DNA of 13,627 bases, taken from Candidatus Zixiibacteriota bacterium. GTDB taxonomy: Bacteria; Zixibacteria; MSB-5A5; GN15; JAAZOE01. Below are positions 1-13,627 of this stretch, piece after piece. The notes under the pieces were generated by a model, which worked only from the letters and a program-made list of their open reading frames with translations, did not search any database and was not told where the DNA came from. The first letter of the stretch is position 1, and each line of letters begins with the position of its first letter. A program made the translations under genes and the position numbers. The DNA lies in NCBI GenBank assembly GCA_043819555.1, contig JBDREQ010000006.1:1-13627 (forward strand), read 5' to 3'.

Positions 1-228
1 AGACCGACCATTTATGTGAATTCAATCGAATACAATGGAACGGAGCAGAATTTAACAAATTCATACGAAGATTACAGTCATGAATGGACAACAAACCCCA
101 ATACTTCAGCCGCATGGTCTTGGAACGATATTAATAACCTCCAGGCTGGTCTAAGAATAAAAGGCAAAAATTCTAATTTCCCGGCTTACTGCACGCAAGT
201 CTGGGTAACAGTCACTTATACACCATAA
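1..228 (+). CDS. C-terminal fragment of a hypothetical (probably secreted, beta-rich) protein; start lies upstream of the window
   Basis: Frame is open from base 1 to TAA at 226-228. The Trp/Asn/Thr-rich tail (..NPNTSAAWSWNDINNLQAG..CTQVWVTVTYTP) lies 32 nt upstream of the pilin-like genes on the same strand. Confidence 0.7.
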   Translation, partial: RPTIYVNSIEYNGTEQNLTNSYEDYSHEWTTNPNTSAAWSWNDINNLQAGLRIKGKNSNFPAYCTQVWVTVTYTP

Positions 229-260
229 AGAAATGGCAATAAGGAATAATGAAATTGTAA

Positions 261-998
261 ATGAGTAAGATAAAAGGACAAAGCGGATTCACCCTCATCG
301 AACTGGTGGCAGTGATTATAATTGTTGGAATCCTGGCGGCTATCGCCGCTCAAAAAATTGGCTCAGTCGCTGAAAACATCAAAGCCGAAGAGACTATGCG
401 AGAGATGGATCTCATCGCCAAAGCAGTAGTCGGAAATGAACTATTATATAATAACGGAATGCGCTCGGATTTCGGATATGTCGGAGATATCGGAGCCTTT
501 CCGCCCAACCTCGATGCATTAATTTCAAATCCCGGACTTGGCACCTGGAACGGCCCATATATCAAAAACAGCTTTGAACAAATATCGAGTGATTATAAAC
601 AGGATTCATGGCAAGCCAATTATACGCTAAGCGGAATTCAAATAACCTCAAGCGGTTCGGGAAGCAATATTGTCAAATACTTCAGCGGGTCAGTCGATGA
701 AATATTATATAATAGTATCGAAGGCAACATCTTTGATCTCGACGGCACTCCTCCCGGCGATTCTCTTAATGCATTTATATTAGTCAGAATGACCTTTCCC
801 GATGGAACCGGAAGTTATTCGACTATATCAAGAACGCCGGATAACGGCGGGCATTTCCAATTCGATTCGATTCCGATCGGCAATCACACGCTTGAAATAA
901 TCTATACTCCAAGCAGTGATACTCTGAGGCATTATGTTTCAGTTTCTCCGGGTTCGGCATTATATGAACAAAATTCCTTAACAACTAATGAATGGTAG
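261..998 (+). CDS. Prepilin-type N-terminal cleavage/methylation domain protein (type II secretion GspG-like pseudopilin) with a C-terminal beta-sandwich extension
   Basis: Class III signal G|FTLIEL followed by a hydrophobic helix (VAVIIIVGILAAIA). GspG-like motifs LDALISNP..WNGPY and D-S-W..Y. Confidence 0.85.
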   Translation: MSKIKGQSGFTLIELVAVIIIVGILAAIAAQKIGSVAENIKAEETMREMDLIAKAVVGNELLYNNGMRSDFGYVGDIGAFPPNLDALISNPGLGTWNGPYIKNSFEQISSDYKQDSWQANYTLSGIQITSSGSGSNIVKYFSGSVDEILYNSIEGNIFDLDGTPPGDSLNAFILVRMTFPDGTGSYSTISRTPDNGGHFQFDSIPIGNHTLEIIYTPSSDTLRHYVSVSPGSALYEQNSLTTNEW

Positions 999-1009
999 CG
1001 GCAGTTTTT

Positions 1010-1756
1010 ATGATGATAGAAAAGGCACAAAACAAATTCAGAGATTGCGGCGGTTTCACTCTGATCGAAATCGTGATAGTCATAATTATTCTCGGAATCC
1101 TGGCCGGAATGGCAACCATGCAATTTGGAACCAATATTGATATTGCCAAATTCGAAGCGACCATGTCCGAGATGAACGCTTTGGCTCATGCCATCGTCGG
1201 TAATCATCAGATTTCCTTAAATGGAACCCGCTCTGAATTTGGCTATGTTGGAGATGTCGGCAGTCTTCCCCCTAATCTCGACGCTCTTTATTCAAATCCG
1301 GGCTATGCCACTTGGGACGGACCCTACATGGACGGCAATACATTGTCTAGCATCAAAACCGATGAATGGGGCTCGAATTATATTTTTCAGGATACGTTGA
1401 TTCGTTCGGTTGGCTCGGGGCAAAATATCGATAAAGTTTTTGCTGGTAACACAGCTTCTTTAATATCAAATAGATTTGACGGCCGGATAGTTGATGCCAG
1501 CGGCAATCGCCCATCGGTATCATATGTTGATTCGGTATTGATTCGCCTCTATTATCCTGATGGAGCCGGAGGAACGGCCTCACCAATTACATACCCCGAT
1601 ACAAAAGGCCAATTCAATTTTACGGGAATACCTATTGGGATGCACATACTGGAAATTATTTATTTGCCCGATAACGATACGCTGTCATATTCAGTTTCAA
1701 TTAATCCCGGCCGCGACGTCAATATGGATATAATTTTCCCCGCCGACTTGTGGTAA
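1010..1756 (+). CDS. Second prepilin-type N-terminal cleavage/methylation domain protein (GspG-like pseudopilin), paralog of 261-998
   Basis: G|FTLIEIVIVIIILGILAGMA, WDGPY and DEWG..Y motifs. Shares the RS(D/E)FGYVGD(I/V)G..PPNLDAL.SNPG block with the upstream gene. Start placed at ATG 1010 (992 and 1013 are alternatives). Confidence 0.85.
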   Translation: MMIEKAQNKFRDCGGFTLIEIVIVIIILGILAGMATMQFGTNIDIAKFEATMSEMNALAHAIVGNHQISLNGTRSEFGYVGDVGSLPPNLDALYSNPGYATWDGPYMDGNTLSSIKTDEWGSNYIFQDTLIRSVGSGQNIDKVFAGNTASLISNRFDGRIVDASGNRPSVSYVDSVLIRLYYPDGAGGTASPITYPDTKGQFNFTGIPIGMHILEIIYLPDNDTLSYSVSINPGRDVNMDIIFPADLW

Positions 1757-1783
1757 AAAATTCCAATTCGCGTTTTTTGGAAA

Positions 1784-3223
1784 TTAAAATTTATCAACCG
1801 TGAATTTATAAATTTGAACTTGTTTATCTTTATAGATGTTTTTAGGCAGTCCGGCCTTAAGGCAGGTCTGTTCCATAAACGTTTGCCGGCCCCATTTATT
1901 TTCCGTGGCGACCTGCGGAAGTAAAAGCCCGGAATGCATATCCATGCGAATTAAGAGCCCGTCCCTTCCCACTTTTATATCTTTAATATCCGTGACCAGG
2001 ACTAATGGCGACATAATCGATATTTCGTATTCAAGATAAGGAAGTTCCTCAGCTGTTACTGGCGGAAAACGAGGATCTTCAAAAGCGGCGGCCAAAGCCA
2101 TTTCCGCAATCGTCTGAAACAATGGTTGCCGAGCCTGAACCAAACCGATGCAACCCCGGAGGTTTCCATTTTTATTCAGCGTCACAAAGGCGCCATGTTT
2201 TTTCTCGAGTTTCGACATCGGCGGATTCGGAATTTCGGTCTTTTGACCGGATGCCGTTGCCTCAACCATATGTCGCGCCAAATTGAGCAAATACTTTTTT
2301 TCATCATCAGTATATGCTTGTTTGGGCAGGATGCTGGGAGTACCCATAAGATTTGATTTTTTGATTTCGGTTTTTTTACCGAGAATTACCGCGGATAAAT
2401 ATCCAACCACTTCTGAAAAATCCCCGGTTATCTCCCCTGACGTGCCGTAACCTGTTATTTCGACAGACTTCCCGCCGATTCTCCTCTGCGCTTCAACAAC
2501 GGCGGCGACCGGGCCAAATCCGCATGCTTCGGCCGCACCACTGGTCACGGTTCTTATTATTTTACCGCTATCAAATGACTTGAGCGCTTCTTCAAAGTTT
2601 TTATCCATCCGATTGGCTTCTTTGACGGGATAAAAATGAGACATATCGGTTGAAGCCACCATTAGGGCGTTTTTATCCTTCATCGATGCCGATAGAACCT
2701 CTGCCGCGGCGCGAATAGTTGATTCTTCCTGATCACCCATAACCATTGCAACGAGTTTAAATCTCCCCAGCACTGTTTGAAGGAACGGCAGTTGAACTTC
2801 AAGCGAATGTTCGCCCTGTCCGCCGGATCCAACATGCCCGGCGGTAGAAGCATAAACATCGGGGTGTCGTTTTGATATCTCCGACGATAATTCCGAATCT
2901 ATCTCTATAACGCCCAGCGGGGTCTGGTAAGCGCCGCCCGAAAAGACCGAAACACCCTTAAAAAATCCATGATGTGGAGCGACCACCACGACGACATCAT
3001 ATTCCTCGCCTTCAATCTGCTTGTAGGCATTGGCCGCCAACTGTCCCGAATACATATAACCGGCATGAGGAGCTATAATGGCATTGACATGCCCGCCAAA
3101 CTGTTTCTTGGGCGCTTTGCTGAAAAATCCTGCCAGCTGTTTGGACAGCTCAATCGGATTCAAAGGATAAAACATCCCCGCTACCATCGGCCGGCGCACT
3201 TCAAAATGTTCTTTCATATTCAT
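1784..3223 (-). CDS. amrB: AmmeMemoRadiSam system protein B / protein A fusion (MEMO1-like dioxygenase-fold domain + AMMECR1 domain)
   Basis: N-terminal MEMO motifs: R.P.VAG.FYP, PHAGYMYSG, EHSLEVQLPFLQ, ASTDMSH, CG.GPV, VVGY. C-terminal AMMECR1 motifs: GAFVTL..LRGCIG, DPRF.PV, GLLLPQV, C.KAG. Confidence 0.93.
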   Translation of the reverse strand: MNMKEHFEVRRPMVAGMFYPLNPIELSKQLAGFFSKAPKKQFGGHVNAIIAPHAGYMYSGQLAANAYKQIEGEEYDVVVVVAPHHGFFKGVSVFSGGAYQTPLGVIEIDSELSSEISKRHPDVYASTAGHVGSGGQGEHSLEVQLPFLQTVLGRFKLVAMVMGDQEESTIRAAAEVLSASMKDKNALMVASTDMSHFYPVKEANRMDKNFEEALKSFDSGKIIRTVTSGAAEACGFGPVAAVVEAQRRIGGKSVEITGYGTSGEITGDFSEVVGYLSAVILGKKTEIKKSNLMGTPSILPKQAYTDDEKKYLLNLARHMVEATASGQKTEIPNPPMSKLEKKHGAFVTLNKNGNLRGCIGLVQARQPLFQTIAEMALAAAFEDPRFPPVTAEELPYLEYEISIMSPLVLVTDIKDIKVGRDGLLIRMDMHSGLLLPQVATENKWGRQTFMEQTCLKAGLPKNIYKDKQVQIYKFTVDKF

Positions 3224-3235
3224 AATTCTAACAAA

Positions 3236-3264
3236 AAGGTACTAAAGCGTTAATCAAAAGTCAA
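3236..3264 (-). promoter_or_regulatory. Putative sigma70 promoter for amrB/A
   Basis: Minus strand TTGACT (3264-3259), 17-nt spacer, TACCTT (3241-3236), just upstream of the start codon. Confidence 0.45.
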
Positions 3265-3298
3265 ACTAAGCACAAAAATTAATAAAAAATCAGATTAT

Positions 3299-3327
3299 TT
3301 GACGTACTTACGGTTATATTTTATATT
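3299..3327 (+). promoter_or_regulatory. Putative sigma70 promoter for the antiporter
   Basis: TTGACG (3299-3304), 17-nt spacer, TATATT (3322-3327). Confidence 0.55.
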
Positions 3328-3377
3328 TGTCTCCTGAAATAGAGGATTATATATATTGGCATATAATTGGAGATCGT

Positions 3378-4811
3378 ATGCGGCGTTTTTTACCGAATAG
3401 AAAATTATTGATTTTCCTGATTATTCTATCGACGGCCTGGTTTTTTTCCAACTTTAATTTGAAGGCTGCATCTGTCCTTGAAAAAACAGATAATTCAATT
3501 CAGGCACAAGTTTCACCAATAGGTGAGATTGAGACTGCTCCCGCTAAATACATTGATGATGTTGATCCTCATCAACATGAAGTTTCAGATGTTCTCCTGG
3601 GATTAATTATCATCCTACTGGCGGCCAAAATTGGCGGTGATATGTTTGAACGTTTCAAACAGCCCGCGGTACTGGGAGAATTGATTTTCGGGATTATCAT
3701 CGGAAATATGTCCCTTTTAGGAATTGATGTTTTTGAATCTTTCAAATACTCGATAACGCTCGATGTATTGGCTGAAATCGGGGTTATAATTCTGCTTTTC
3801 CAGGTTGGCCTCGAATCGTCAATCAGTGAAATGATTAAAGTCGGATTGGCCTCATTTATGGTAGCAACACTTGGGGTTATTGCTCCTTTCTTTCTCGGTT
3901 GGGGCGTGGGCGCCTGGTTCCTGCCGAATGAATCAATTTACGTTCATATTTTTATTGGAGCCACGTTAACGGCAACTTCTGTCGGAATTACAGCGCGGGT
4001 GTTACAAGACATAGGCAAAATAAAAACCAAAGAGGCAAAAATCATACTCGGCGCAGCGGTCATTGACGATATCATGGGACTGGTTATTCTCGCCGTAGTG
4101 GCGGGAATTATTTCGGCGGCTGACAGCGGAAGTTCACTTTCGAGTTTATCCGTCTTTTCGATTATCGCTAAAGCAATAATTTTTGTAATCGGCTCGCTTT
4201 TGCTTGGGAGATTTTTATCCCCTTATTTATTCAAGATCGGTTCCAAAATGAAAGTCAAGGGTGTCCTTCTGTCTCTTGGCCTTTTAATATGTTTTCTCCT
4301 GGCTTATATAGCCGATATGATTGGCCTGGCCCCGATTGTGGGAGCCTTCGCCGCCGGTTTGATTTTGGAAAAAATATTCTATAAAGACTATACCGACCGC
4401 GGTGAGCATGATGTGGATGATTTAATAGAGTCGATCGCGATATTTTTGGTTCCGATATTCTTCGTTCGCATGGGCATGATGGTGCAGTTGGAATCCTTTG
4501 CTGATGTGGATATTCTTTTCTTCGCCGCTGTGATGACCATTGCCGCAATTGTGGGAAAACAAGTGTGCTCACTGGCCATTTTCGATAGAAAGACCAATCG
4601 AATCGCCATCGGATTGGGCATGATTCCGCGAGGCGAAGTGGGATTAATATTTGCCGGTATTGGAGCCAAACTTATGTTAAACGGACATCCCGTCATTTCC
4701 GGAGGTGCGTTTTCCGCTGTAATCATCATGGTTATTGTAACTACTTTAGTAACGCCGCCATTTTTGAAATATGCTATGCTCCGTGAGCCCAAAATGGCCA
4801 AATCAAGTTGA
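3378..4811 (+). CDS. Cation:proton antiporter, CPA2 family (Na+/H+ or K+/H+ exchanger, NapA/Kef-like)
   Basis: About 12-13 hydrophobic segments with CPA2 motifs QPAVLGEL..G..IG, LF.VGLES, ATSVGITARVL, AAVIDD, GAF.AG and GMIPRGEV. GGAG precedes ATG 3378. Confidence 0.92.
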   Translation: MRRFLPNRKLLIFLIILSTAWFFSNFNLKAASVLEKTDNSIQAQVSPIGEIETAPAKYIDDVDPHQHEVSDVLLGLIIILLAAKIGGDMFERFKQPAVLGELIFGIIIGNMSLLGIDVFESFKYSITLDVLAEIGVIILLFQVGLESSISEMIKVGLASFMVATLGVIAPFFLGWGVGAWFLPNESIYVHIFIGATLTATSVGITARVLQDIGKIKTKEAKIILGAAVIDDIMGLVILAVVAGIISAADSGSSLSSLSVFSIIAKAIIFVIGSLLLGRFLSPYLFKIGSKMKVKGVLLSLGLLICFLLAYIADMIGLAPIVGAFAAGLILEKIFYKDYTDRGEHDVDDLIESIAIFLVPIFFVRMGMMVQLESFADVDILFFAAVMTIAAIVGKQVCSLAIFDRKTNRIAIGLGMIPRGEVGLIFAGIGAKLMLNGHPVISGGAFSAVIIMVIVTTLVTPPFLKYAMLREPKMAKSS

Positions 4812-4869
4812 GTTCATTCGGCTCAGCATAGTTCAAACTTCAGAGAATAAAATTAATTGATGCATTGCC

Positions 4870-4898
4870 TTGACAAACCATATGAAAACTTATAGATT
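4870..4898 (+). promoter_or_regulatory. sigma70 promoter of the tRNA gene
   Basis: TTGACA (4870-4875), 17-nt spacer, TAGATT (4893-4898), 12 nt before the tRNA. Confidence 0.75.
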
Positions 4899-4910
4899 GG
4901 CAATTCTCGA

Positions 4911-4965
<55 letters not shown>

Positions 4966-4987
<22 letters not shown>

Positions 4988-6144
4988 AATTTAAGTCCCT
5001 GAAGCTTAACAGCTTCGGGGATTTTATTTTGAGTGGGATTTCCTTCAGAAACCGGATTTTCTAACAGTTTTCTAACAAAACTTCCGAAAACTGTTTTGTC
5101 TAATCTCCGAGCGGCACCATTTTCAAGGTTTGGCATCAAATGTCCATAGCGATCAAGTGTCGTTTTTGCCGACGCATGACCAAGTTGTGATTGAACGAAT
5201 TTAATATTCTCGCCCTGAGAAATAAGTAATGATGCAAAGGTATGCCGGAGATCATGGAAGCGAATCCGGTGCAAGCCTGCTCTGTCCAGTGCGGGATAGA
5301 ATCCCCGCTTAACAAGGTTATCGGGATCAACTGACAATCCGTTTCCATTGGAAAACACTAATTCCTTTTCGGATTGGTTTCCAAGTAAACGATGCTGTTC
5401 AAGTGCCTGACGAAGCATGGGCGACAAAACTATCCTTCTAATAGAATTCTTCGACTTGGGTGTTATGAATTCTCCTCGAAAGATAGAACGCCTGACTGAT
5501 ATCTGATTGGAATTCCAATCAATATCACCCCATTGCAATGCCAGAAGCTCACCACGTCGCATGCCAGTCATTACTGCTGTCATAAGCACTGCATAATACT
5601 CCTGACCGACATTATTCAAGAATAGGCGAATTTCCTCTGGATTGAGAAATTCCATCTCTTCCTGTTCTACTCGTGGTCGCTTCACATGTAATGAGGGATC
5701 ACGTTTAATATATCCCCAGATAACAGCATGCTTGAACATTTCCTTAAGAGGAATTAAAATATTCACAACGGACTTGGGACTCAAACTGTCTCTCGTAATC
5801 TTCTCAGATACGAATTTCTGAATAGTCGCCGTAGATATCCGATGCAAATACTTCTTACCAAAACAAGGATTCAAGTGAAGCCTCACAATGGATTCATAGC
5901 TGATGTATGTAGATTCCTTTACGGAAATCTTTGCGTAATCGGAAAGCCATTTTTGAGCAAAATCCTTGAAAAGAATTTTCTCAAAATCCTGATAGGTTCC
6001 AGTGTTAATCTGATCTAACCGTTTTGCCAGGAGTTTTTCTGCTTTCCTCTTACTGCTACCAGCTCGTTCCCATTTCTGAACTCCTCCGTCCCGATAAACC
6101 GCATACCAACTTCCAGACTTGTTTATAACGCTTCCTTTTGCCAA
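4966..6144 (-). CDS. int: Site-specific tyrosine recombinase/integrase (phage/ICE type, ~392 aa)
   Basis: Catalytic motifs TGMRRGEL (R), FHDLRHT (HxxR), LGH and DRYGH (Y), plus an N-terminal arm-binding-like and SAM-like region. A strong SD (AAAGGAGGTG) precedes TTG at 6144, so the start is moved from 6297. Confidence 0.95.
4993..5030 (+). terminator. Rho-independent terminator for the tRNA, supplied by the element end and lying inside the integrase CDS on the opposite strand
   Basis: AAGTCCCTGAAGCT-taac-AGCTTCGGGGATTT is a 14-bp stem with two G-U pairs on the + strand, followed by TATTTT. Confidence 0.75.
5057..5077. repeat. Tandem 10-bp direct repeat TTTTCTAACA x2, candidate integrase arm-type binding sites of attL
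   Basis: TTTTCTAACA at 5057-5066 and 5068-5077 with a 1-nt spacer, ~70 nt from the tRNA end. Confidence 0.55.
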
Positions 6145-6268
6145 TACAATCTCACCTCCTTTCCGAATGGCCGGTTTGAGGGTTAGAAATTCATCGAATA
6201 GCAAGGGCACACAATTTACTGGATACCCTTGCCACTCGAATTGTTGACTTTGAATTCTCATGGACTGT

Positions 6269-6297
6269 AAAATACAACGTCCAGAAGCTAAAATCAA
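6269..6297 (-). promoter_or_regulatory. Possible internal promoter for int
   Basis: Minus strand TTGATT (6297-6292), 17-nt spacer, TATTTT (6274-6269), at the end of xis. Confidence 0.35.
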
Positions 6298-6557
6298 ACT
6301 GTTGATTCGACTTCTTCAAATTCGTCTTCATGAATGTGCATCCCTGCGCCTTTAATCCTGAGATAATCCTCAATCTCTGGAATAGAAAAACGCAAATATC
6401 TTCCGATTTTGTAGAACGGTAATCTCTCCGGGCCCGATTTTCTGGTTCTATCGTAAACCCAAGACATCGGAACTCTCAATCTCCTTGCCAATTCTTCTGG
6501 CGTTATGAGATAAGCAAGAAGACTCGAATCAATGGTTCCTCTATTGCCATCTTGCAT
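6294..6557 (-). CDS. xis: Excisionase-like / AlpA-MerR-type helix-turn-helix DNA-binding protein
   Basis: LITPEELARRLRVPMSWVYD..LPFYKIGRYLRFS..EIEDYL is the typical HTH_17/Xis pattern. The gene is directly upstream of int, has GGAGG before ATG 6557, and overlaps the ATPase stop. Confidence 0.85.
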   Translation of the reverse strand: MQDGNRGTIDSSLLAYLITPEELARRLRVPMSWVYDRTRKSGPERLPFYKIGRYLRFSIPEIEDYLRIKGAGMHIHEDEFEEVESTV

Positions 6558-8313
6558 TTTCAATTTCCTCCTCTAATTGCTCTGCTACAATCTTTGGTTG
6601 TTCGAGAAGAGCAAATCTTCGCTCTTCAATAAGCCTATCAACCACTATGGCAGGCAGAGCATACTTTGCATTTGAACGAGCGATTGTCTTTCGCTTGTCC
6701 TTCTCTAAAGCCTTAACATCTCGGACAAATTTAGTGATTATCGGCATAGTCTCATTATCACCAATCTTAATCTGTGCGTGGCGCATTGGCTGGCATTGAA
6801 TCCAGGCGATATATTTCTCTTTGATTTCCTCAACAGTGAAATACTGCCTGTTAGCCAATTCAGATTCTCGCACATATTCATAGAAAGGTACAATTGATGT
6901 GCTCCGGGACCTGCCTTTACTGAAACCTTTCGTGGTGGAAGATGCGCTGAAAATACCGGAAGAGTACGAATCGAGATCGGTCTTAGAATTGCCAATACTA
7001 AATGCGGACGAATACGAACCCATTCGATCTGGCTCATACATATCTGTACTAGGCAAGAACACTTCTGATGAGCCAAATCCCGAACTATCGCCAATCCCTG
7101 TAGCGTGGCTGTTACCGTCCGACATACCCTCCATTTCCGATTCACTTTGGCTTTCGCTTTCGGATTCCGATTTGCTTTTGACTACTCTTCTTGATTCGGT
7201 AGGCGTTAACAAAGTTCGGTGCAGCTCATCCTTAATGCGATTGCCGGATATTTTCCCGGCATACAATTCCCCAATCAGCTCTTCAGCATCAACTCTGCTC
7301 GTCTTAAAAGCGATTTTGACATCTGTGTTTGACATCAGGTTTTCATAATAAGCTGGTATTTCCTTCGTTTGTGCCAAAGTCTGAAAACACAAGGTAAAGA
7401 ATATACCGTATTTCCTGAGGGCTTGGAGAGAGTAAGGCAGGTCATTGGAAGTCAATTCTCCTGCTTCGTCTACGATAACATTAAAAGGTTTCATCGCATT
7501 CTTCTTTGATCTTTGAAAAGCGTAGTTGACGACCTGGTCTACAAGGAGAATGCCCAACACCTGCTGGCATTCACGGGAAACCCTCTTGGGAGCAAGATTA
7601 ACTAATACAATCTTGCCTCGCTCGATAGCATCGCCAATATCAATAGTTGATTTGTTCTGGCCGAGGATTCTCCTGATAGGGTCAGATAAGATCAGCTTTG
7701 CGGCCCGATTCAAGGGAGCCTCAATCAAGTTCTCCATATCAGATCGCTTCTTTATAGCATCAAAACCGGTCCACTCGTTGTGTACGTAAGAGTTTTGGAC
7801 ATATTGTAGCGCGGCCTGTCTATAAAGTGGATTCGACGTGGATAGAAAATCCAGCATATCGGCCAGCGTCAACCTTGCCGCTATGAGGGACATCAAAAGA
7901 TTTCTTTGCCACCTTTCTAAACGGGGCAATACATCACCTTCATTTTGCCCAAACACCTTTGCAATCGCCTTCATTACCTGGGATGCCAAGGCTGCGTCAT
8001 CAAGCCACTGGTTTGAAAGGAAGTTAATACCAACCGCATATTCCGTTTCATTCGGATTAATACTAGCAATACGGTTTCTATATCCCGCAGTCGTCGCAAA
8101 AGCCAGCAGATCATCATACAACGAACCATGGGGATCCAAAACCATCATTCCTTGGTTGTGTTGGATGTGGTACCTGCAACGAGCCTCCAATAGTTTTGAT
8201 TTGCCTCTGCCAGTTCCTCCGACAATCATCCAATGTTTTCGCATTGAATCTTGTTCGAGAAGCACTGGTTTGCCATTTATGGCATGTTTCCCAATGTTTA
8301 GCTTTGTAGTCAT
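6541..8313 (-). CDS. VirD4/TraD/TrwB-like type IV coupling-protein ATPase (HerA/FtsK superfamily)
   Basis: Walker A KHWMIVGGTGRGKS, LDPHG motif, KIVLVNL, Walker B VIVDEA, LRKYG..LCFQ..Q, and a Ser-rich C-terminal insert. AGGAGG precedes ATG 8313. An alternative in-frame ATG at 8433 adds a hydrophobic segment. Confidence 0.85.
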   Translation of the reverse strand: MTTKLNIGKHAINGKPVLLEQDSMRKHWMIVGGTGRGKSKLLEARCRYHIQHNQGMMVLDPHGSLYDDLLAFATTAGYRNRIASINPNETEYAVGINFLSNQWLDDAALASQVMKAIAKVFGQNEGDVLPRLERWQRNLLMSLIAARLTLADMLDFLSTSNPLYRQAALQYVQNSYVHNEWTGFDAIKKRSDMENLIEAPLNRAAKLILSDPIRRILGQNKSTIDIGDAIERGKIVLVNLAPKRVSRECQQVLGILLVDQVVNYAFQRSKKNAMKPFNVIVDEAGELTSNDLPYSLQALRKYGIFFTLCFQTLAQTKEIPAYYENLMSNTDVKIAFKTSRVDAEELIGELYAGKISGNRIKDELHRTLLTPTESRRVVKSKSESESESQSESEMEGMSDGNSHATGIGDSSGFGSSEVFLPSTDMYEPDRMGSYSSAFSIGNSKTDLDSYSSGIFSASSTTKGFSKGRSRSTSIVPFYEYVRESELANRQYFTVEEIKEKYIAWIQCQPMRHAQIKIGDNETMPIITKFVRDVKALEKDKRKTIARSNAKYALPAIVVDRLIEERRFALLEQPKIVAEQLEEEIENARWQ

Positions 8314-8466
8314 TGAAATGCCTCCTTCATTATTTGAATGAGGGAAAGCAATTGCTGGTAATATTGATATGATTACCAACACATACGCAATCCCTCTGGT
8401 AAAGAAGCCTACATTCCTTTGTGGAAGTTTCATTTTGCTTTCCCTCGTCAAAGGGTTTTTGTATAG

Positions 8467-9090
8467 TTATTCATCAAGATGAACCTGAGATTGACTAATG
8501 ATTTTGTCATATTCATCAATCGTGTCTTCAAGAATCTCCGGATCATCAATTTCTTGTTTCATTTGGGCAACGAACTCGGAACGCAATTTTGCTCTTTCAG
8601 CAGCATCCAAAGCGAGGGCTTTGTGGTAGAACCGTCGCTTCTTCTGCTCCATCTGGAGTTTTCTTAGTTCTCCTTTTTCTCGTTCATTGATTGCTCTCAA
8701 TCGCTCCTGCTGCAACTCTGCCGGCAGAAGAGTTCCTTCAGGTACGTTGAGCAGCTTTGTTTTCTCTTTATTTGCCTCCAGAACAGCCATTTTCAGCTTT
8801 TGATAGTCCGAAAGGATGTTCATCCGGTGCTGATGGCACTTATCTGCAAGATTTAGTTTGAAAGAAAGGATATCTTCTATCCTTTTGCGCAGCATTTGAA
8901 TTGCCAGGTCATATCTGACGTTTAGAAAATAGAAAGCAGCGTGTTCTAACGCCATTTTTTTCATTGACTCGCTTTCTACATTGTCTTTCAGCCAGTTCAC
9001 GAAATCCCGTTTTTCATCGATCAACTCGAGCATATTCTTCTTGGGGATTTCAGAAAATATTGCCAGAGGGTATTTTTTCTTTACTGACAT
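8467..9090 (-). CDS. Hypothetical alpha-helical/coiled-coil protein
   Basis: 207-aa charged, helical ORF. AAGGGGGTGG SD-like sequence precedes the ATG, which overlaps the end of the upstream small ORF. Co-oriented with the ATPase. Confidence 0.75.
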   Translation of the reverse strand: MSVKKKYPLAIFSEIPKKNMLELIDEKRDFVNWLKDNVESESMKKMALEHAAFYFLNVRYDLAIQMLRKRIEDILSFKLNLADKCHQHRMNILSDYQKLKMAVLEANKEKTKLLNVPEGTLLPAELQQERLRAINEREKGELRKLQMEQKKRRFYHKALALDAAERAKLRSEFVAQMKQEIDDPEILEDTIDEYDKIISQSQVHLDE

Positions 9091-9254
9091 TGTTCCACCC
9101 CCTTACGAAGTTCTTTTTCCATTCTTTCGAGCTCATCCAATTCCGAACGCATTGGACCGCCTGGTGCAGGCAATTGCTTAGGATCTTGCATAAGATACAA
9201 GAGTTTGGCAATTCCGTAAAATATGCTAACTGCTCCTATTACTAAATTGAACAT
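9081..9254 (-). CDS. Small single-pass membrane protein (57 aa), first gene of the ATPase-xis-int operon
   Basis: AAAGGAG SD 9 nt before ATG 9254. Hydrophobic N-terminus MFNLVIGAVSIFYGIAKLLYLM is followed by a Pro-rich linker and a charged helix. Confidence 0.65.
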   Translation of the reverse strand: MFNLVIGAVSIFYGIAKLLYLMQDPKQLPAPGGPMRSELDELERMEKELRKGVEQCQ

Positions 9255-9268
9255 TGTGTTCATCTCCT

Positions 9269-9296
9269 TTGACAAAATTTGTACCTATGCTAACAT
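9269..9296 (+). promoter_or_regulatory. Antisense sigma70 promoter overlapping the SD region of the operon's first gene
   Basis: TTGACA (9269-9274), 16-nt spacer, TAACAT (9291-9296), with an extended -10 TG. Confidence 0.5.
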
Positions 9297-9302
9297 GGAA
9301 GA

Positions 9303-9403
9303 CATCGTTCTTTCTCTTCCAGGTTAACGACTCAGTTTCCTCGCCCCGGACAACATCCTTTGACGGCATCCAGATGGATGCCCTCTGCTGTTCGGGGTTC
9401 TTT
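9303..9403 (+). ncRNA. Putative cis-antisense (countertranscript) RNA
   Basis: Lies downstream of the 9269-9296 promoter. It ends in the stem GCCCCGGACA/TGTTCGGGGT (G-U pairs on +) enclosing GGCATCC-agat-GGATGCC, followed by TCTTT. Confidence 0.4.
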
Positions 9404-9428
9404 AATTGGATTGGGAATTAGCGGGCAT

Positions 9429-9478
9429 AAAAAAACCCACCAATACCATTCTGGGATACCCAGATGTTATTGTGGGAT
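9429..9478 (-). terminator. Intrinsic terminator/attenuator in the leader of the ATPase-xis-int operon
   Basis: Minus strand CCCACAATAACATCTGGG-tat-CCCAGAATGGTATTGGTGGG long bulged stem followed by T7. Confidence 0.7.
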
Positions 9479-9528
9479 TGCTTCTCTAAATGTCGGCTGT
9501 CAGAAAACCTGACAATTCACTTAATGCT
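9429..9528 (-). ncRNA. ~100-nt leader/attenuated transcript (RNA2)
   Basis: Bounded by the near-consensus promoter 9535-9563 and the terminator 9429-9478. Contains the internal hairpin TGTCAG-gtttt-CTGACA (9514-9498). Confidence 0.5.
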
Positions 9529-9534
9529 AACCTA

Positions 9535-9563
9535 TTTATACTCAATCCTCCGCGAGATGTCAA
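9535..9563 (-). promoter_or_regulatory. Strong sigma70 promoter (P2) for the leader RNA and ATPase-xis-int operon
   Basis: Minus strand TTGACA (9563-9558), 17-nt spacer, TATAAA (9540-9535). Confidence 0.75.
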
Positions 9564-9566
9564 GCG

Positions 9567-9597
9567 AAAAAAAGATGGCCCACCCGAAGGTGGGCCA
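9567..9597 (-). terminator. Rho-independent terminator of the upstream sRNA
   Basis: Minus strand TGGCCCACC-TTCG-GGTGGGCCA (9-bp perfect stem, C-UUCG-G tetraloop) followed by TCTTTTTTT. Confidence 0.85.
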
Positions 9598-9755
9598 CTT
9601 CTCATTAGCATTAAGTGATTACCAACGAGAAGCTTGTCTACCTACCGCCAGCGTTGGACATTCTCCTGTTATTAGTCCACATCAACTTCCAAGGATTGAG
9701 AAGGAAGCCCTGGCGGCCTTAGTGACATGCTAAGCAAGCATGATCACCGAAACGC
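9567..9755 (-). ncRNA. Putative ~190-nt structured small RNA (RNA1)
   Basis: Has its own promoter (9761-9789) and terminator. Folds into a 5' hairpin (9748-9721), a three-way junction (9717-9644), a 14-bp hairpin with several G-U pairs that are valid only on the minus strand (9633-9597), and the terminator. Confidence 0.65.
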
Positions 9756-9760
9756 AAATT

Positions 9761-9789
9761 AATATGTACGATGAAAGACAATAAGTCAA
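9761..9789 (-). promoter_or_regulatory. sigma70 promoter (P1) for RNA1
   Basis: Minus strand TTGACT (9789-9784), 17-nt spacer, CATATT (9766-9761). Confidence 0.6.
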
Positions 9790-9809
9790 GACACTATATT
9801 ATCCAGAAT

Positions 9810-9957
9810 AATCCCGGCCTCACAATTCCGCGCCGGACCGGCTTCAGCGAGGCGAAAGCCTAACCAGCGTGTTTGAAACACCACCTTATATCGCAAACAC
9901 TTCTCACAGAGAAGCATGTCTCATTTTGGAGTAAGCGGAATTTATGAAGCCGGGATT
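9810..9957. other. ~150-nt multibranched stem-loop element directly downstream of the relaxase-like gene
   Basis: Closing stems AATCCCGGC (9810-9818)/GCCGGGATT (9949-9957) and AATTCCGC (9824-9831)/GCGGAATT (9935-9942). Internal hairpins AGGC-gaaa-GCCT, GTGTTTG/CAAACAC and CTTCTC-aca-GAGAAG. Confidence 0.6.
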
Positions 9958-9972
9958 CCAGGCTTGCGACAA

Positions 9973-11076
9973 TCAGTCTATTAGACTTCGCAAACCCTTT
10001 TTCGGATTAGATGTTTTCCAAACGTGGCGGAAAATCGATTCGGGATTTTCCAGTTCGAACTTATCAATCGGTGTAAACCAGAATAACGAACTGGTCGCAA
10101 TGTCTCGTCTGATCTGAGGAAGCTCAGCCAGAATGTTCGCCAACCGTCCGCCTACAACTCCCTCGCTGTCCAATTGCCCAGGTGTTATAAAAAGCACGGT
10201 GAACCCCTTGATCGGCTCAAGCTTTTCGTCCAGCATTTGGCCGGTCGTCCTTTTGAGTATTCCCAAATCGACTATCTGCCCGCCGCCGGTTTTTTTGTAG
10301 TAGTATCTTCTCGAATGCCCATGAGATTTTCGATAATACCAGAACCCCAGTACTTTTTTGCGAATATCCGACCCACTGCCTGTTGCAGATATCGGCATAG
10401 TTCCCCGATCAACCTCAAGGAAGTAATTCACTTTGCCTTTGCCAGCAACATGAAGTGAGAATATACCATCAGGATATACGGAATACCGATTGCCATTTTT
10501 ATCGTGAACGGCATCCATCAGCTCTCGCCCTTGTTTCCAAAACAGTAAGCGGATTTCTCCGCTTGACTGCTGGCAGGCAAGTTCGAGAATTGTCCTGAAT
10601 TTGGAAATTTCAAGGGCGTGTCGCAAAAAGAAGGGCTTCTTCTTATCGGATTTTATGACACTCCTGATTCTCTCAATTGAATCACCGGTCAATTTAGAAA
10701 TAAAATCCGCACTCTTGGGGCCAATACTGTAGATCGCTCTGGGCGATCCATAGCCCCGACCAATCGGCTCATCCGCAATGGGCTGTCTGTTCAAATATCT
10801 GGCATTGAAGAGTTGCATCAGTCGCTTTCTTAATGCCTGCTCCGTAAAGCCATATTGCTTTGGACGTTTCTTTCCGTCTTTCCCCACTTTATATTCTTTT
10901 GGCCGTTCACTGTATTTTGAGGCCAAAAGGTGCCAGAGCAATTCAAAATCCAAATATCGATATTCATTGATTATTTGGAGAATCTCGCTGTCTCTCTCAC
11001 GAAACGTCAGATTAGGGAAAGCACTTTCATCCGGGTCGAATCGAGACAATCTTTTCTTTGGGCTGGGTTTTTTCAT
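9973..11076 (-). CDS. Replication-relaxation (Replic_Relax) family protein, putative relaxase of the element (~367 aa)
   Basis: Pattern RD.EIL..I..YRYL, R.RL..L...YL.R, FLRHALEI, YPDGIFSL, YFLEVDRGTM, K...(F/Y), VLFIT (winged helix + PD-(D/E)xK-like core), next to a VirD4-like gene. CAGGA precedes ATG 11076. Confidence 0.8.
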   Translation of the reverse strand: MKKPSPKKRLSRFDPDESAFPNLTFRERDSEILQIINEYRYLDFELLWHLLASKYSERPKEYKVGKDGKKRPKQYGFTEQALRKRLMQLFNARYLNRQPIADEPIGRGYGSPRAIYSIGPKSADFISKLTGDSIERIRSVIKSDKKKPFFLRHALEISKFRTILELACQQSSGEIRLLFWKQGRELMDAVHDKNGNRYSVYPDGIFSLHVAGKGKVNYFLEVDRGTMPISATGSGSDIRKKVLGFWYYRKSHGHSRRYYYKKTGGGQIVDLGILKRTTGQMLDEKLEPIKGFTVLFITPGQLDSEGVVGGRLANILAELPQIRRDIATSSLFWFTPIDKFELENPESIFRHVWKTSNPKKGLRSLID

Positions 11077-11124
11077 ATTCAAGTTCCTGTCTGTTTCATC
11101 CGGCTTGCCGGATTCCGCTTCTCT

Positions 11125-11588
11125 TAAGATGCCCCCTCGTCGGCCCCGAAAGTCCCCTTCAGGGGACGGCCGCCCCACAAGGCCAAGCCGAAGGCGCAGG
11201 ATGAGTGGCTGGCGGTTCGTGGTTGCCCGACTCGACCCGCTTCGGCCGCAGTCCCACCTCAGAGAATACATAATGGGACAAGACCCGAAGACTGAAAAAC
11301 GCAGTTTTTCGGCTGAAGCCGAAGCCTCCTGGGAACCTGCCTGCTTCGCCCGGTATTACATCCTCCACCATCGCCAATAGCTCCACAGAAGCAGGTAGGC
11401 AGGAGGCAAGGGAAGGGGGTCGAGTCGGGCAACGAGCCGCGACATTATTCCATTGTATAGCCGCAACTTAGCGGCCTGTAAAAGTAGAATAGATAATTTA
11501 TCTATTCTACTTTACAATAAAGTCATTTTGAATGACTTTGCAAGGGAATAATGTCTGAGCGATGGCAGACCGACGAGGGGGCATCTTA
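11125..11588. repeat. ~460-nt nested inverted-repeat structure (candidate oriT / single-strand origin or large ncRNA)
   Basis: Perfect 19-bp IR 11125-11143/11570-11588 encloses a 17-bp IR 11222-11238/11417-11433, an 11-bp IR 11441-11451/11545-11555 and many smaller hairpins. Confidence 0.75.
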
Positions 11589-11594
11589 TCTTCA

Positions 11595-11638
11595 ACGACC
11601 ACGGCGTAAGTGGTCGTATTTCAATCACTGATTGAAAT
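11595..11638. repeat. Two adjacent perfect hairpins/palindromes
   Basis: ACGACCAC-ggcgtaa-GTGGTCGT (11595-11617) is immediately followed by ATTTCAATCA-c-TGATTGAAAT (11618-11638). Confidence 0.7.
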
Positions 11639-11652
11639 TGTTTTCAAGTAGC

Positions 11653-11790
11653 TTACGATGTTCGGCGTTTCTTGCAGTAATAGCACATTTTGCCAAACTG
11701 CACTTTCTTCTTGCATATCCTGCAATTCTTTGGATATCCAATTTTGATTTTTTGCCTTCCGAAAGGACGTTTTCCGTTGTATAAGCTCAT
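11653..11790 (-). CDS. 45-aa basic Cys4 (CxxC-x9-CxxC) zinc-finger-like microprotein, absent from the ORF track
   Basis: MSLYNGKRPFGRQKIKIGYPKNCRICKKKVQFGKMCYYCKKRRTS*. Its ATG overlaps the TGA of the RuvC-like gene (ATGA coupling). Confidence 0.6.
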   Translation of the reverse strand: MSLYNGKRPFGRQKIKIGYPKNCRICKKKVQFGKMCYYCKKRRTS

Positions 11791-12284
11791 GGTGTTTTAG
11801 ATATCAAATCTAAGTAAGTTAGGCCACACGCCACCGCGTCAGTAATATTGAAAAAGGTATTCAAGGACGAAGGTGATTGATTTTGGACGTATATCCGCAA
11901 TTCGGGATATCGATTCACAACAGCTCTTGAGAGTTCGGACTTGGTCGCATAGCCATTGTTCGATATTACTGATCGCACTGTATTGGGGGCGTATTCGATC
12001 AACCTGACAGAATGCTCCTTGGCGACTGTCTTAATCCTGGCAATCGCCAGAGTTAGCCGGATATTATTGGTGATTTGCGAAAATCTGTTCTTCTCGAGGA
12101 TTATCAGGGAAGGTTGTTTTTCCAAAATCAACCTTTCAAACACATTTTGAATATCATTCAGTAGGTTCTCAATCTTGGTGGCAGGTTTGAATAGCTTCAA
12201 ACCGTAATCAATAAGATGATAGTCTTCAAAATCTGCATAGCCCATTATTCTTGTTCCAGGATCAATCGCCAGAATTCTCATCAT
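11787..12284 (-). CDS. ruvC: RuvC-like Holliday junction resolvase (crossover junction endodeoxyribonuclease family)
   Basis: MRILAIDPGT..MGYA (catalytic D), P..IILE (E), EYAP..VR, G.ATK.E and TDAVA (D). About 165 aa, overlapping the XRE gene end. Probably an element-borne homolog rather than the host copy. Confidence 0.85.
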   Translation of the reverse strand: MMRILAIDPGTRIMGYADFEDYHLIDYGLKLFKPATKIENLLNDIQNVFERLILEKQPSLIILEKNRFSQITNNIRLTLAIARIKTVAKEHSVRLIEYAPNTVRSVISNNGYATKSELSRAVVNRYPELRIYVQNQSPSSLNTFFNITDAVACGLTYLDLISKTP

Positions 12285-12573
12285 CCTGGGAGTAGCATCG
12301 GTACTCCAATTGAATCTTGTTTTTCGCCTTAGCCTCATACATTTCTTCTTTCAATTGCTTAAATAAATCAAGGAAAAGAATCTCTACCGGACATTGAAGG
12401 GCCAAAGCAAGTCGTAGGCAGTTTCTTAATGAGGGTAGTTTCCTACCATGTTCGAAATGACAAATATGAGCTACGCATGATTGACCAGTTAATTTGGCAA
12501 CATCCCGCAACCGGAGGCCTCGCTCATGGCGATACCTCCGGATTTGATTTGGTAATGACTTTTCGCGGGACAT
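12262..12573 (-). CDS. XRE/Cro-family helix-turn-helix transcriptional regulator
   Basis: NQIRRYRHERGLRLRDVAKLTG....ICHFEHGRKLPSL...LRLALAL.CPVE.LF is an HTH_3 pattern. Confidence 0.88.
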   Translation of the reverse strand: MSREKSLPNQIRRYRHERGLRLRDVAKLTGQSCVAHICHFEHGRKLPSLRNCLRLALALQCPVEILFLDLFKQLKEEMYEAKAKNKIQLEYRCYSQDDENSGD

Positions 12574-12688
12574 AGCTATTTTTGTTTTTGTCTTTGTATT
12601 CCCATCCTAATTGGTAAGACAACACACTGCAATTGCTTGAAAGAGCTATTTGTCGTTTTGTCGGTCGGTGAGACCGGTAAAACAGATC

Positions 12689-12765
12689 ATTCTATCACAC
12701 TCACAAATTCTGTCAAGAGCACGGTATGTAGCTACATTGACAGCTTCCTTCGCTCGTGTTATGAT
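12689..12765. promoter_or_regulatory. Back-to-back divergent sigma70 promoters with a central 12-bp palindrome (candidate operator)
   Basis: Minus: TTGACA (12716-12711), 16 nt, TAGAAT (12694-12689). Plus: TTGACA (12737-12742), 17 nt, TATGAT (12760-12765). Both have an extended -10 TG. ATGTAGCTACAT lies at 12726-12737. Confidence 0.75.
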
Positions 12766-12796
12766 AAAGCCAAGGATATCCACTAAAACAAGAACT

Positions 12797-13495
12797 ATGA
12801 AAGACAAAAACGGGCGGTTTATAGGTTTTTATAGCCCGAAATATACCCAGGTGCCCGACGATCTGTTCGATGAACTGATGTCCGAACTCTCCGGATCGGA
12901 ATTAAAGGTCTTGTTATACGTTGTTAGACGGACCTTCGGATGGAAAAAAGACTCTGATAAAATAAGTCTTTCCCAAATGGCCAATGGTATTACCAAAAAA
13001 GATGGTACAATGCTTGATAGTGGTACTGGACTATCTAAACAGGCTGTATCAAGAGCAGTAAGATCACTTGTTAGCAGGGAAATCCTAATCCGACGACGTA
13101 ATCGTTCGGAAAAGAACAGCTTTGAGCCAACAGAATACTCATTGAATATAAGCGATTACCCCTTGTCAAATAATGTGACAAGGGGGGGTAGTCAAAAAAT
13201 GCAACAAAGGGTGGGTCACAAATGTGACATACAAGAAACAGTTAAACAAGATACAGAGAAAACGTTAAGTAAACCTGTGGATAACTCTCAGACCTTACAG
13301 GATAAAGAGCTTCTTGGACAAATCATGGTGACTTGCCGCGATCCTAACTCATTCAATTTCTATCGCAAAGTCGTCAAGGAAGTACCGAGATTCAAAGTCC
13401 TGAGTGCCCTCAGCCAAGTCAAAGAGGCCCAAGCTCTAGGGCGTGTTCGAAAAAACGCTGGAGCAATGTTCACGGACTTAATTAAACTGTACTGA
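12797..13495 (+). CDS. Replication initiator protein, lambda O / phage replisome-organizer-like N-terminal winged helix; last codons derive from an IS end
   Basis: YTQVPDDLFD..M..LSGSELKVLLYVVRRTFGWKK..DKISLSQ...G.....TGLSKQAV.RAV.SL is the Phage_rep_O-like pattern. Iteron-like repeats lie mid-gene. Start placed at the first ATG downstream of the promoter. Confidence 0.8.
   Translation: MKDKNGRFIGFYSPKYTQVPDDLFDELMSELSGSELKVLLYVVRRTFGWKKDSDKISLSQMANGITKKDGTMLDSGTGLSKQAVSRAVRSLVSREILIRRRNRSEKNSFEPTEYSLNISDYPLSNNVTRGGSQKMQQRVGHKCDIQETVKQDTEKTLSKPVDNSQTLQDKELLGQIMVTCRDPNSFNFYRKVVKEVPRFKVLSALSQVKEAQALGRVRKNAGAMFTDLIKLY
13159..13284. repeat. Candidate replication origin inside rep: iteron-like repeats plus a DnaA box
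   Basis: GTCAaataATGTGACA (13165), GTCAaaaaATGCAACA (13191) and GTCAcaaATGTGACA (13215). IR CCCCTTGTCA/TGACAAGGGG (13159-13185), then an A-rich tract and a perfect DnaA box TGTGGATAA at 13276-13284. Confidence 0.55.
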
Positions 13496-13627
13496 ACGAT
13501 ACTTAACTTGACAGTCACTTACCTCTGAGAGGTTTTTGGTTTAGGCCGTCAGTTTCTCTTCATTCTCCAGATTTGCATTATTTGCCAATTCCATTCCGTC
13601 AGTAAAAGTCTGAATCGGCGTTTTGCC
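13488..13627 (-). mobile_element. Right end of an IS481-family insertion sequence (truncated by the window edge)
   Basis: After the transposase-like stop, the minus strand ends ...CTGTCAAGTTAAGTATCGTTCAGTACA, matching the TGT...ACA termini and the TGTCA..T.AAGT internal motif typical of IS481 ends. Confidence 0.65.
13541..13627 (-). CDS. C-terminal fragment of an IS481-family transposase
   Basis: The minus frame reads GKTPIQTFTDGMELANNANLENEEKLTA*, resembling the GKTPxQTFxD..LA tail of IS481-type transposases. Confidence 0.65.
   Translation of the reverse strand, partial: GKTPIQTFTDGMELANNANLENEEKLTA

Follow-up and report, generated by a model that had tools for sequence, protein, structure and literature searches.

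We analysed a 13,627-nucleotide stretch of DNA from a Candidatus Zixiibacteriota bacterium (the whole of contig JBDREQ010000006.1, positions 1 to 13,627; hereafter the window), which carries a small mobile element. The ~700-nt gap between the relaxase gene of this element and its small open reading frame (ORF), ATPase, excisionase (xis) and integrase (int) genes holds two tandem putative transcripts, which we call RNA1 and RNA2. Comparison of the window with related loci indicates that the two form a conserved RNA–RNA pairing module, specific in silico, in which a hairpin of RNA1 is complementary in three blocks to the 5' part of RNA2. We are fairly confident that this pairing is itself functional, and RNA1/RNA2 probably constitute an element-specific RNA switch placed before the transfer and excision genes. 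The parts of the locus are as follows.

9761–9789, minus strand: P1, candidate promoter of RNA1 (TTGACT, 17-nt spacer, CATATT; promoter scan, 9/12)
9567–9755, minus strand: RNA1, ~189 nt (fold; ends placed by motifs)
9748–9721, minus strand: 5' hairpin of RNA1 (RNA1 fold)
9717–9644, minus strand: multibranch domain of RNA1, closed by a covarying stem (RNA1 fold)
9633–9597, minus strand: antisense hairpin P3 of RNA1 (RNA1 fold)
9605–9633, minus strand: RNA1 blocks C (9633–9627), B (9626–9621) and A (9618–9605), which pair with RNA2
9598–9575, minus strand: stem of terminator T1, with its U-run at 9573–9567 (terminator scan)
9535–9563, minus strand: P2, candidate promoter of RNA2 (TTGACA 9563–9558, 17-nt spacer, TATAAA 9540–9535; by eye)
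9429–9530, minus strand: RNA2, or leader, ~100 nt (fold; ends placed by motifs)
9530–9480, minus strand: parts of RNA2, namely A' (9530–9517), its own hairpin H (9514–9498), B' (9497–9492) and C' (9486–9480)
9476–9429, minus strand: terminator T2, a long imperfect hairpin (9476–9436) and a seven-U run (9435–9429)

P2 begins 3 nt past the U-run of T1 and is near-consensus (11/12); it is missing from the promoter scan because the scan requires a T at the last −10 position. An earlier interpretation made from the DNA letters (the sequence-only reading) had described two tandem minus-strand units, each with a promoter and a terminator. We read these sites where it had placed them, and its positions for the blocks, promoters and terminators all match the sequence. 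It had also proposed a seed exposed in a loop above a stem weakened by G–U pairs, and the predicted P3 fits this description, with 4 G–U pairs among its 14 and the start of block A lying open in its 9-nt loop. Besides this antisense hairpin, RNA1 has ~110 nt of conserved structure with an invariant purine-rich strand. The covariation that the same reading had suggested looking for within RNA1 was found: the consensus fold over five loci contains 28 pairs, and compensatory change affects 10, among others in the closing stem around a variable interior. The RNA1 covariance model (CM R1) scores 126 bits in the window. An equivalent of P1 (−35 TTGnnn, 17 nt, (C/T)ATATT) was seen by eye at the same relative place in the related loci L020, L021, L022 and L033, and another DNA contig covers 9508–9705 with a single C>T difference.

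The match between the blocks of RNA1 and RNA2 exceeds chance. A and A' form a 14-nt inverted repeat of 100% complementarity (9605–9618 vs. 9517–9530) with 74 nt between the arms; furthermore, B (9626–9621) can form 6 bp with B' (9497–9492), two of them G–U, and C (9633–9627) can form 7 bp with C' (9486–9480). When RNA1 and RNA2 are co-folded, P3 opens and 14 + 6 + 7 intermolecular pairs form around the RNA2 hairpin, with T1 and T2 intact; the three collinear blocks straddling that hairpin, as described beforehand, were thus confirmed both in the sequence and in the co-fold. At up to one mismatch, the 14-mer of block A occurs at only these two sites in the 3.35-Mb genome, and at up to two mismatches, it has 21 matches, compared with 21.5 expected. 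Of all targets on the two strands of the window, the 5' region of RNA2 is the best non-trivial one for P3, at −35.0 kcal/mol; the mean over 2710 sequence windows is −15.2 kcal/mol (standard deviation 4.1). The net gain on dimer formation is −19.3 kcal/mol, which none of 100 dinucleotide shuffles attained. A search for a second RNA1 target between T2 and the first ORF found no consistent site.

DNA similarity searches with the region found nothing in E. coli genomes or phage records and only one weak 40-nt match among 60 relatives. Related loci were gathered via the relaxase, 16 from species genomes and 23 from metagenomes; their records are labelled Zixibacteriota or Ignavibacteria, and the relaxase profile found no relative among viral contigs. 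Within the phylum, the relaxase is present in 29 of 285 genomes. Four close relatives of the relaxase (P0001, P0003, P0007 and P0008) show 68–88% identity. An nhmmer profile of the region showed the tandem pair in L020, L021, L022 and L033, and the signature of a terminator followed by TTGACA showed it in L036, L187 (genome G074) and L188 (G072) as well. Together with the window, these are eight loci, all of which have that signature and three of which come from the 29 relaxase-bearing genomes; as L021 and L022 hardly differ, the eight represent seven sequence types. A signature match in L016 was rejected, as it lies inside a coding region. Two other approaches were left unused, namely a degenerate DNA pattern for the RNA1 core, whose matches (at least 119 stretches) were taken as chance, and a generic scan of each terminator against its downstream sequence, which was too noisy.

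The sequence-only reading had recognised no named family, and our Rfam searches agree with it: nothing in Rfam 15 matches RNA1 or RNA2 in the window or in five related loci. At E-values up to 10, cmscan gave seven weak matches in 9200–10000, the C4 antisense RNA not among them, and at E-values up to 1, it gave no C4 antisense RNA match in the five related loci.

The same predicted dimer topology is shared by six loci (the window, L020, L021, L022, L033 and L036). In this common plan, RNA2 consists of A', its own hairpin, B' (with C'), a short spacer and T2, and C, B and A follow one another without a gap in the last hairpin of RNA1 or its 3' flank. The number of intermolecular pairs is 27 in the window, 18 in L020, 23 in L021, 23 in L022, 22 in L033 and 31 in L036. 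The A block measures 14 nt in the window, 11 in L021/L022, 7 in L033, 8–9 in L020 and 15 in L188. L020 has two unrelated blocks of 8–9 nt each, L188 a perfect 15-mer block and L187 a 10-bp block with short helices and no clear inserted hairpin.

Across these loci, the block sequences vary and the complementarity is kept. When the A:A' helices of the window, L021 and L033 are aligned manually, the first three or four pairs from the junction outward are shared, and the following positions are Watson–Crick pairs changed on both sides. The cognate energy gain beats all 100 shuffles in seven of the eight loci. In an 8 × 8 matrix of RNA1 against RNA2, cognate pairs average −16.1 kcal/mol, compared with −5.0 kcal/mol for non-cognate pairs (standard deviation 3.0, n = 54). 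Counting L021/L022 as one type, every RNA2 pairs best with its cognate RNA1 (8/8), and RNA1 pairs best with its cognate RNA2 in 6/8. Furthermore, in all six loci compared, the stability of the sense-strand dimer exceeds that of its opposite-strand counterpart by 7.7–17.8 kcal/mol. The expectation that relatives would preserve the blocks through compensatory change was therefore borne out by complementarity in differing sequences and by the shuffle and cross-matrix tests.

Could RNA2 be the leader of the genes that follow it? On the basis of the gene and signal layout, it is most likely the leader of the small-membrane-protein/ATPase/xis/int operon. In seven loci, the first small membrane ORF lies 175–223 nt downstream of RNA2 on the same strand, and the interval between T2 and this ORF contains no sense promoter comparable to P2 in any of nine loci. 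This spacing, the lack of a sense promoter in the interval and a helix that can form past T2 together favour the leader role. The pair is always directly upstream of the small-ORF operon, and its upstream neighbour varies; in L021/L022, extra DNA separates it from the relaxase. Two further features belong to this region.

9417–9426, minus strand: segment past T2 able to pair with the T2 3' arm as an alternative helix (7/7 loci)
9269–9296, plus strand: conserved antisense promoter-like site (TTGACA, 16 nt, TAACAT, with TG; 10/12)

The T2 3' arm (9417–9450 region, minus strand) is complementary both to the T2 5' arm and to the segment after the U-run. The resulting post-T2 helix has 9–12 bp in 7/7 loci with a sequence that varies among them, and it is more stable in the sense strand in 5/7. 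It can be formed only by a read-through RNA or an antisense transcript, which favours the leader role. It cannot form before the termination decision, and its purpose is unexplained.

The antisense site is the best promoter-like site in 8900–10200. Lying just upstream of the first small ORF, it overlaps the ribosome-binding region of that ORF and is directed back at T2, RNA2 and RNA1. An equivalent is present in all nine loci (the window, L019, L020, L021, L022, L033, L036, L187 and L188), where it beats the sense-strand candidates; these sites have TTGACA, a spacer of 16–18 nt and a −10 box often preceded by TG, and several of the −10 boxes are palindrome arms. A third RNA, antisense in cis, might start from this site, or the site may contribute to control by convergent promoters.

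At 9380–9400 (minus strand) and in related loci, we also observed a conserved motif, A-rich and then C-rich, ~30–45 nt past T2. Its C-run pairs in folds with a G-run ~60 nt downstream, and it could be part of the leader structure or a Rho-loading region.

The minus strand of RNA2 has no ORF of at least 20 aa with a plausible start; the minus-strand ORF that overlaps RNA2 (9611–9486) starts within RNA1 and spans T1 and P2, and the 89-aa ORF of the other strand shows no protein-level conservation. A type I toxin–antitoxin pair, in which the target encodes a small toxic peptide that the antisense RNA keeps from being translated, was rejected, as RNA2 is without a plausible ORF of that length. RNA1 as a small ORF was rejected as well: the supposed start varies as the closing stem demands, and L020 and L033 have no start codon there (by eye).

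The genes of the surrounding element are as follows.

4911–4984: tRNA gene, the sole cmscan match in the window at the gathering threshold
4966–6297, minus strand: tyrosine integrase (int), abutting the tRNA gene 4911–4984
6294–6563, minus strand: HTH_17 excisionase-like protein (xis; family match)
6541–8451, minus strand: ATPase of 636 aa, TraD/FtsK-like (TrwB/TraG/FtsK-HerA matches)
8467–9090, minus strand: 207-aa protein without a family match
9254–9081, minus strand: small membrane ORF, the first ORF of the operon
4966–9254, minus strand: the downstream operon (small membrane ORF, 207-aa protein, ATPase, xis, int)
9973–11076, minus strand: Replic_Relax protein (relaxase)
Further genes of the element, minus strand: a RuvC-like gene, then a helix-turn-helix (HTH) repressor-like gene
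After the HTH repressor-like gene, plus strand: a diverging RepO-like gene

In L033, tRNA matches delimit a ~10-kb element with the same gene order as the window. The relaxase ORF (9973–11271) encodes 432 aa from its first ATG; ~90 homologues have ~367 aa and cover 85%, and the true start probably lies near 11076. Between the RuvC-like and relaxase genes lies a cluster of inverted repeats (11222–11555), among them a perfect 16-nt palindrome at 11481–11513 and 22-nt arms at 11222–11243 and 11412–11433; the cluster may serve as an origin or operator.

Directly past the relaxase stop codon, at 9806–9975 (minus strand), lies a ~155-nt element with a long closing stem and three hairpins. Across six loci, its consensus contains 56 pairs, of which 22 show compensatory change; several columns are mostly U–G. 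Its profile has matches in 65 of 84 locus entries, which include many duplicates; where the end of the relaxase gene is known, the matches mostly begin within ~30 nt of it. The element has no Rfam match and occurs much more widely than RNA1/RNA2; it may be the origin of transfer (oriT) of the relaxase family or a separate, uncatalogued structured RNA.

A different module, made of two RNA-like units that each end in a terminator, with a long-range pair of complementary 8-mers, occupies the slot between relaxase and transfer genes in L011 (7280–7720) and L019 (8090–8420). The L019 relaxase is 87% identical to that of the window, yet its slot holds a different module, so the slot seems exchangeable.

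What might the pairing do? Judged by analogy, we favour a reading that combines RNA2 as the leader of the transfer/excision operon with RNA1 as an element-specific, repressing counter-RNA; as a package, we would give it an even chance. Two separately transcribed RNAs would be made by a ~10-kb tRNA-integrated element, RNA1 being encoded on the same strand just upstream. P3 would open and pair with the first nucleotides of the nascent leader (A'), and pairing would extend beyond the leader hairpin to B' and C', giving a composite duplex of 18–31 bp in most loci and a three-way junction 3–12 nt ahead of T2. Since the block sequences are element-specific, each RNA1 would recognise its own leader only, like an immunity or insulation determinant. 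RNA1 would then keep operon expression low via duplex-directed cleavage or an altered leader fate, and surplus terminated RNA2 would titrate RNA1; repression would proceed without antiterminator flipping. Pairing at the extreme 5' end of RNA2 is common to all eight loci. The genome (97% complete) encodes RNase III, and a search of it for Hfq gave none, which fits an extended, chaperone-independent pairing. The sequence-only reading had proposed that RNA1 controls read-through into the operon; the position of RNA2 fits a leader, and the predicted structures lend no support to control of termination at T2, which persists in the dimers.

Several points weigh against this reading or against the pairing on which it builds. 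T2 folds by default and persists in every predicted dimer. When seven leaders were folded without the T2 3' arm (minimum free energy, MFE), the T2 5' arm made no upstream pairs in four; the other three were mis-parsed, with the purine tract pairing with the U-tail, and one of these, from L033, gave two nominal pairs. With no alternative structure on the T2 5' arm and T2 in all dimers, there is no predicted route by which RNA1 would promote termination, and a classical terminator/antiterminator switch is not predicted by these models. In addition, P2 looks stronger than P1 (11/12 vs. 9/12 consensus match), so RNA1 would be outnumbered, which is awkward for a repressor. Both transcripts and their ends are themselves read from sequence motifs, and all structures are predictions.

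On the side of the pairing, the net gain in L020 is not significant, as 12 of 100 shuffles reach the cognate energy; this exception is explained by the very stable hairpin of that locus. Two RNA1s have equal or better non-cognate partners, that of L020 with the L033 RNA2 and that of L187, which prefers the window RNA2 by 0.1 kcal/mol. One in-block mismatch in L033 is C–A and would be G–U if the other strand were read. The block alignment is manual, and because the MAFFT alignment (A2) sets the A blocks out of register, the intermolecular pairs were judged by explicit helix tables and energy tests in place of column-wise covariation. Finally, there are only seven sequence types, which are mutually related. 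CM R1 recovered only its five training loci among 69 sources, and its best score in 28 other relaxase-bearing genomes was 27 bits. It is too narrow to find L036, L187 and L188, whose membership rests on architecture.

The same pairing could also act with the opposite sign. RNA1 would then be a trans-acting antiterminator or activator that weakens T2 or stabilises the read-through mRNA, and we regard this as a serious rival, if an unlikely one. T2 forms by default, so only its failure is left to regulate, and binding at the extreme 5' end allows the longest time before RNA polymerase reaches T2. Moreover, when the leaders of L022, L033 and L187 are folded alone, the purine tract of C' pairs with the T2 U-tail, and RNA1 covers the purine tract in the window, L021, L022 and L033; the weaker-looking P1 would likewise suit a limiting activator. 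On the other hand, the natural systems checked, P4 CI and pCF10 Anti-Q, are repressors, and the last pair lies anywhere between 3 and 12 nt from T2. Terminators gain strength from an A-tract upstream of them, and in L020 and L187, RNA1 leaves the A-rich tract beside T2 uncovered. RNA2 might instead be an independent small RNA, serving as a decoy or sponge for RNA1 or as one half of a two-piece particle, a scaffold role that the sequence-only reading had also raised, with a functional RNA1 5' domain (for example, for protein binding) and the operon driven from elsewhere. The ~110 nt of conserved RNA1 structure beyond the antisense hairpin would suit such a role, as would the abundance of RNA2 expected from a near-consensus P2 and the efficient look of T2 (a long hairpin with 6–7 U). 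We nevertheless hold it to be distinctly unlikely, as the interval from T2 to the first ORF lacks a better sense promoter in 9/9 loci, the pair always adjoins the small-ORF operon while its upstream neighbour is variable, and the post-T2 helix implies that the read-through RNA matters.

Two further explanations do away with separate partner RNAs, and like the decoy or scaffold role, they are less likely. The blocks may act within one molecule, where a P1 transcript reading through T1 would form a long-range helix enclosing T1 and P2, similar to the forms of IsrK. The predicted dimer topology is fully nested and could equally form in cis, and read-through and short forms of IsrK interact (PMC4825925). 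T1, however, is strong in the loci read (a G+C-rich stem of 9–10 bp and 5–7 U), and a TTGACA promoter follows T1 in 8/8 loci, which argues for two transcripts; we consider the single-molecule explanation very improbable. Slightly lower still, we place the possibility that the inverted repeats work as DNA, either as paired protein sites flanking P2 or as a hairpin in transferred single-stranded DNA. A and A' do flank the −35 and −10 boxes of P2, with A' overlapping the start site, the usual place for an operator, and ~60 nt upstream of RNA1 is the structured element that is probably oriT-like. Against this, the arms are not palindromes themselves, a DNA-site model gives no role to blocks B and C or to the hairpin that only one arm contains, the two G–U pairs of block B in the window would be mismatches in DNA, the sense strand folds better in 6/6 loci, and both arms lie inside units bounded by promoter and terminator. 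An operator shared with the control region of the HTH repressor gene was also rejected; the longest common word is 8 nt, which counts against the DNA-site explanation too.

If the pairing works as proposed, RNA1 and RNA2 represent an uncatalogued RNA family that would control how a widespread group of small integrative elements excise and transfer in sediment bacteria that are uncultivated. P4/P1-type RNA immunity would thereby be extended to two independent tandem genes with a 5'-terminal target and a junction-forming duplex. The diverged, mutually specific pairs would amount to natural compensatory mutants for the study of trans-RNA effects on intrinsic terminators and leader stability, and they could be used as orthogonal RNA–RNA parts; as the promoters look sigma70-like, reconstitution in E. 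coli is realistic. A bolder and improbable version is a protein-independent, naturally programmable switch with at least seven mutually orthogonal specificities, in which a trans RNA seizes the 5' end of the nascent leader, the junction beside the terminator decides read-through without an antiterminator fold, and the RNA1 5' domain is a sensor that gates the hairpin.

How does the pair compare with known antisense systems? The C4 RNAs of phages P1 and P7 differ by matched changes in their complementary blocks. RNA1 shares with C4 and P4 CI the position of a mobile-element small RNA encoded on the same strand and upstream of complementary sites in the transcript of the controlled operon (A/B/C at 9633–9605, A'/B'/C' at 9530–9480), as well as a specificity that comes from short complementary blocks. 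In P4, pairing of CI RNA with seqA and seqC leads to premature termination (PMC4825925), and IsrK of Gifsy-1 is described as a structural homologue of P4 SeqA RNA. Unlike C4, RNA1 matches no Rfam model, the C4 antisense RNA family included, and at the sequence level, it has its own promoter-like site and intrinsic terminator, whereas C4 is cut from the operon transcript. Its target begins with the first nucleotides of the following transcript, its three collinear blocks straddle a target hairpin, it carries a further conserved structured domain of ~110 nt, and the hosts are uncultivated bacteria.

The Anti-Q/Qs/IRS1 system of pCF10, a conjugative plasmid of Enterococcus, offers a second likeness. 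There, Anti-Q reduces read-through past the terminator IRS1, and a rise in transcription of the leader titrates it; the operon promoter has a convergent promoter opposite it, and the cross-talk between the RNAs involves RNase III (PMC3181467). In pCF10, a conjugation operon stands behind a terminator-bearing leader on which a small RNA acts, as proposed here, and the window has the conserved convergent promoter-like site at 9269–9296. However, Anti-Q is encoded on the opposite strand and is fully complementary, whereas RNA1 is encoded on the same strand and has short blocks only, and no antiterminator alternative is predicted in the RNA2 leader.

In counter-transcript attenuation of the rep genes of the plasmids pT181, pIP501 and pAMbeta1, and in the RNA I/RNA II pair of ColE1, an antisense RNA binds the 5' part of the nascent leader early, and changes of specificity define compatibility groups; these RNAs are cis-encoded on the opposite strand and switch mutually exclusive leader folds. 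The window resembles attenuation of the pT181/pIP501/pCF10 type in that T2 (9476–9429) stands between P2 and the first ORF at 9254. It differs from that type in that RNA1 and RNA2 lie on the same strand, and that mutually exclusive antiterminator and terminator folds are not predicted (MFE, seven leaders); opposite-strand encoding and switching leader folds, both found in ColE1, pT181, pIP501 and pAMbeta1, were likewise not found here. RNA1/RNA2 are of the antisense/immunity-RNA kind but belong neither to the C4/CI family nor to the cis-antisense attenuators. RNA1 is most likely an element-specific counter-RNA akin to P4 CI, P1/P7 C4 and pCF10 Anti-Q.

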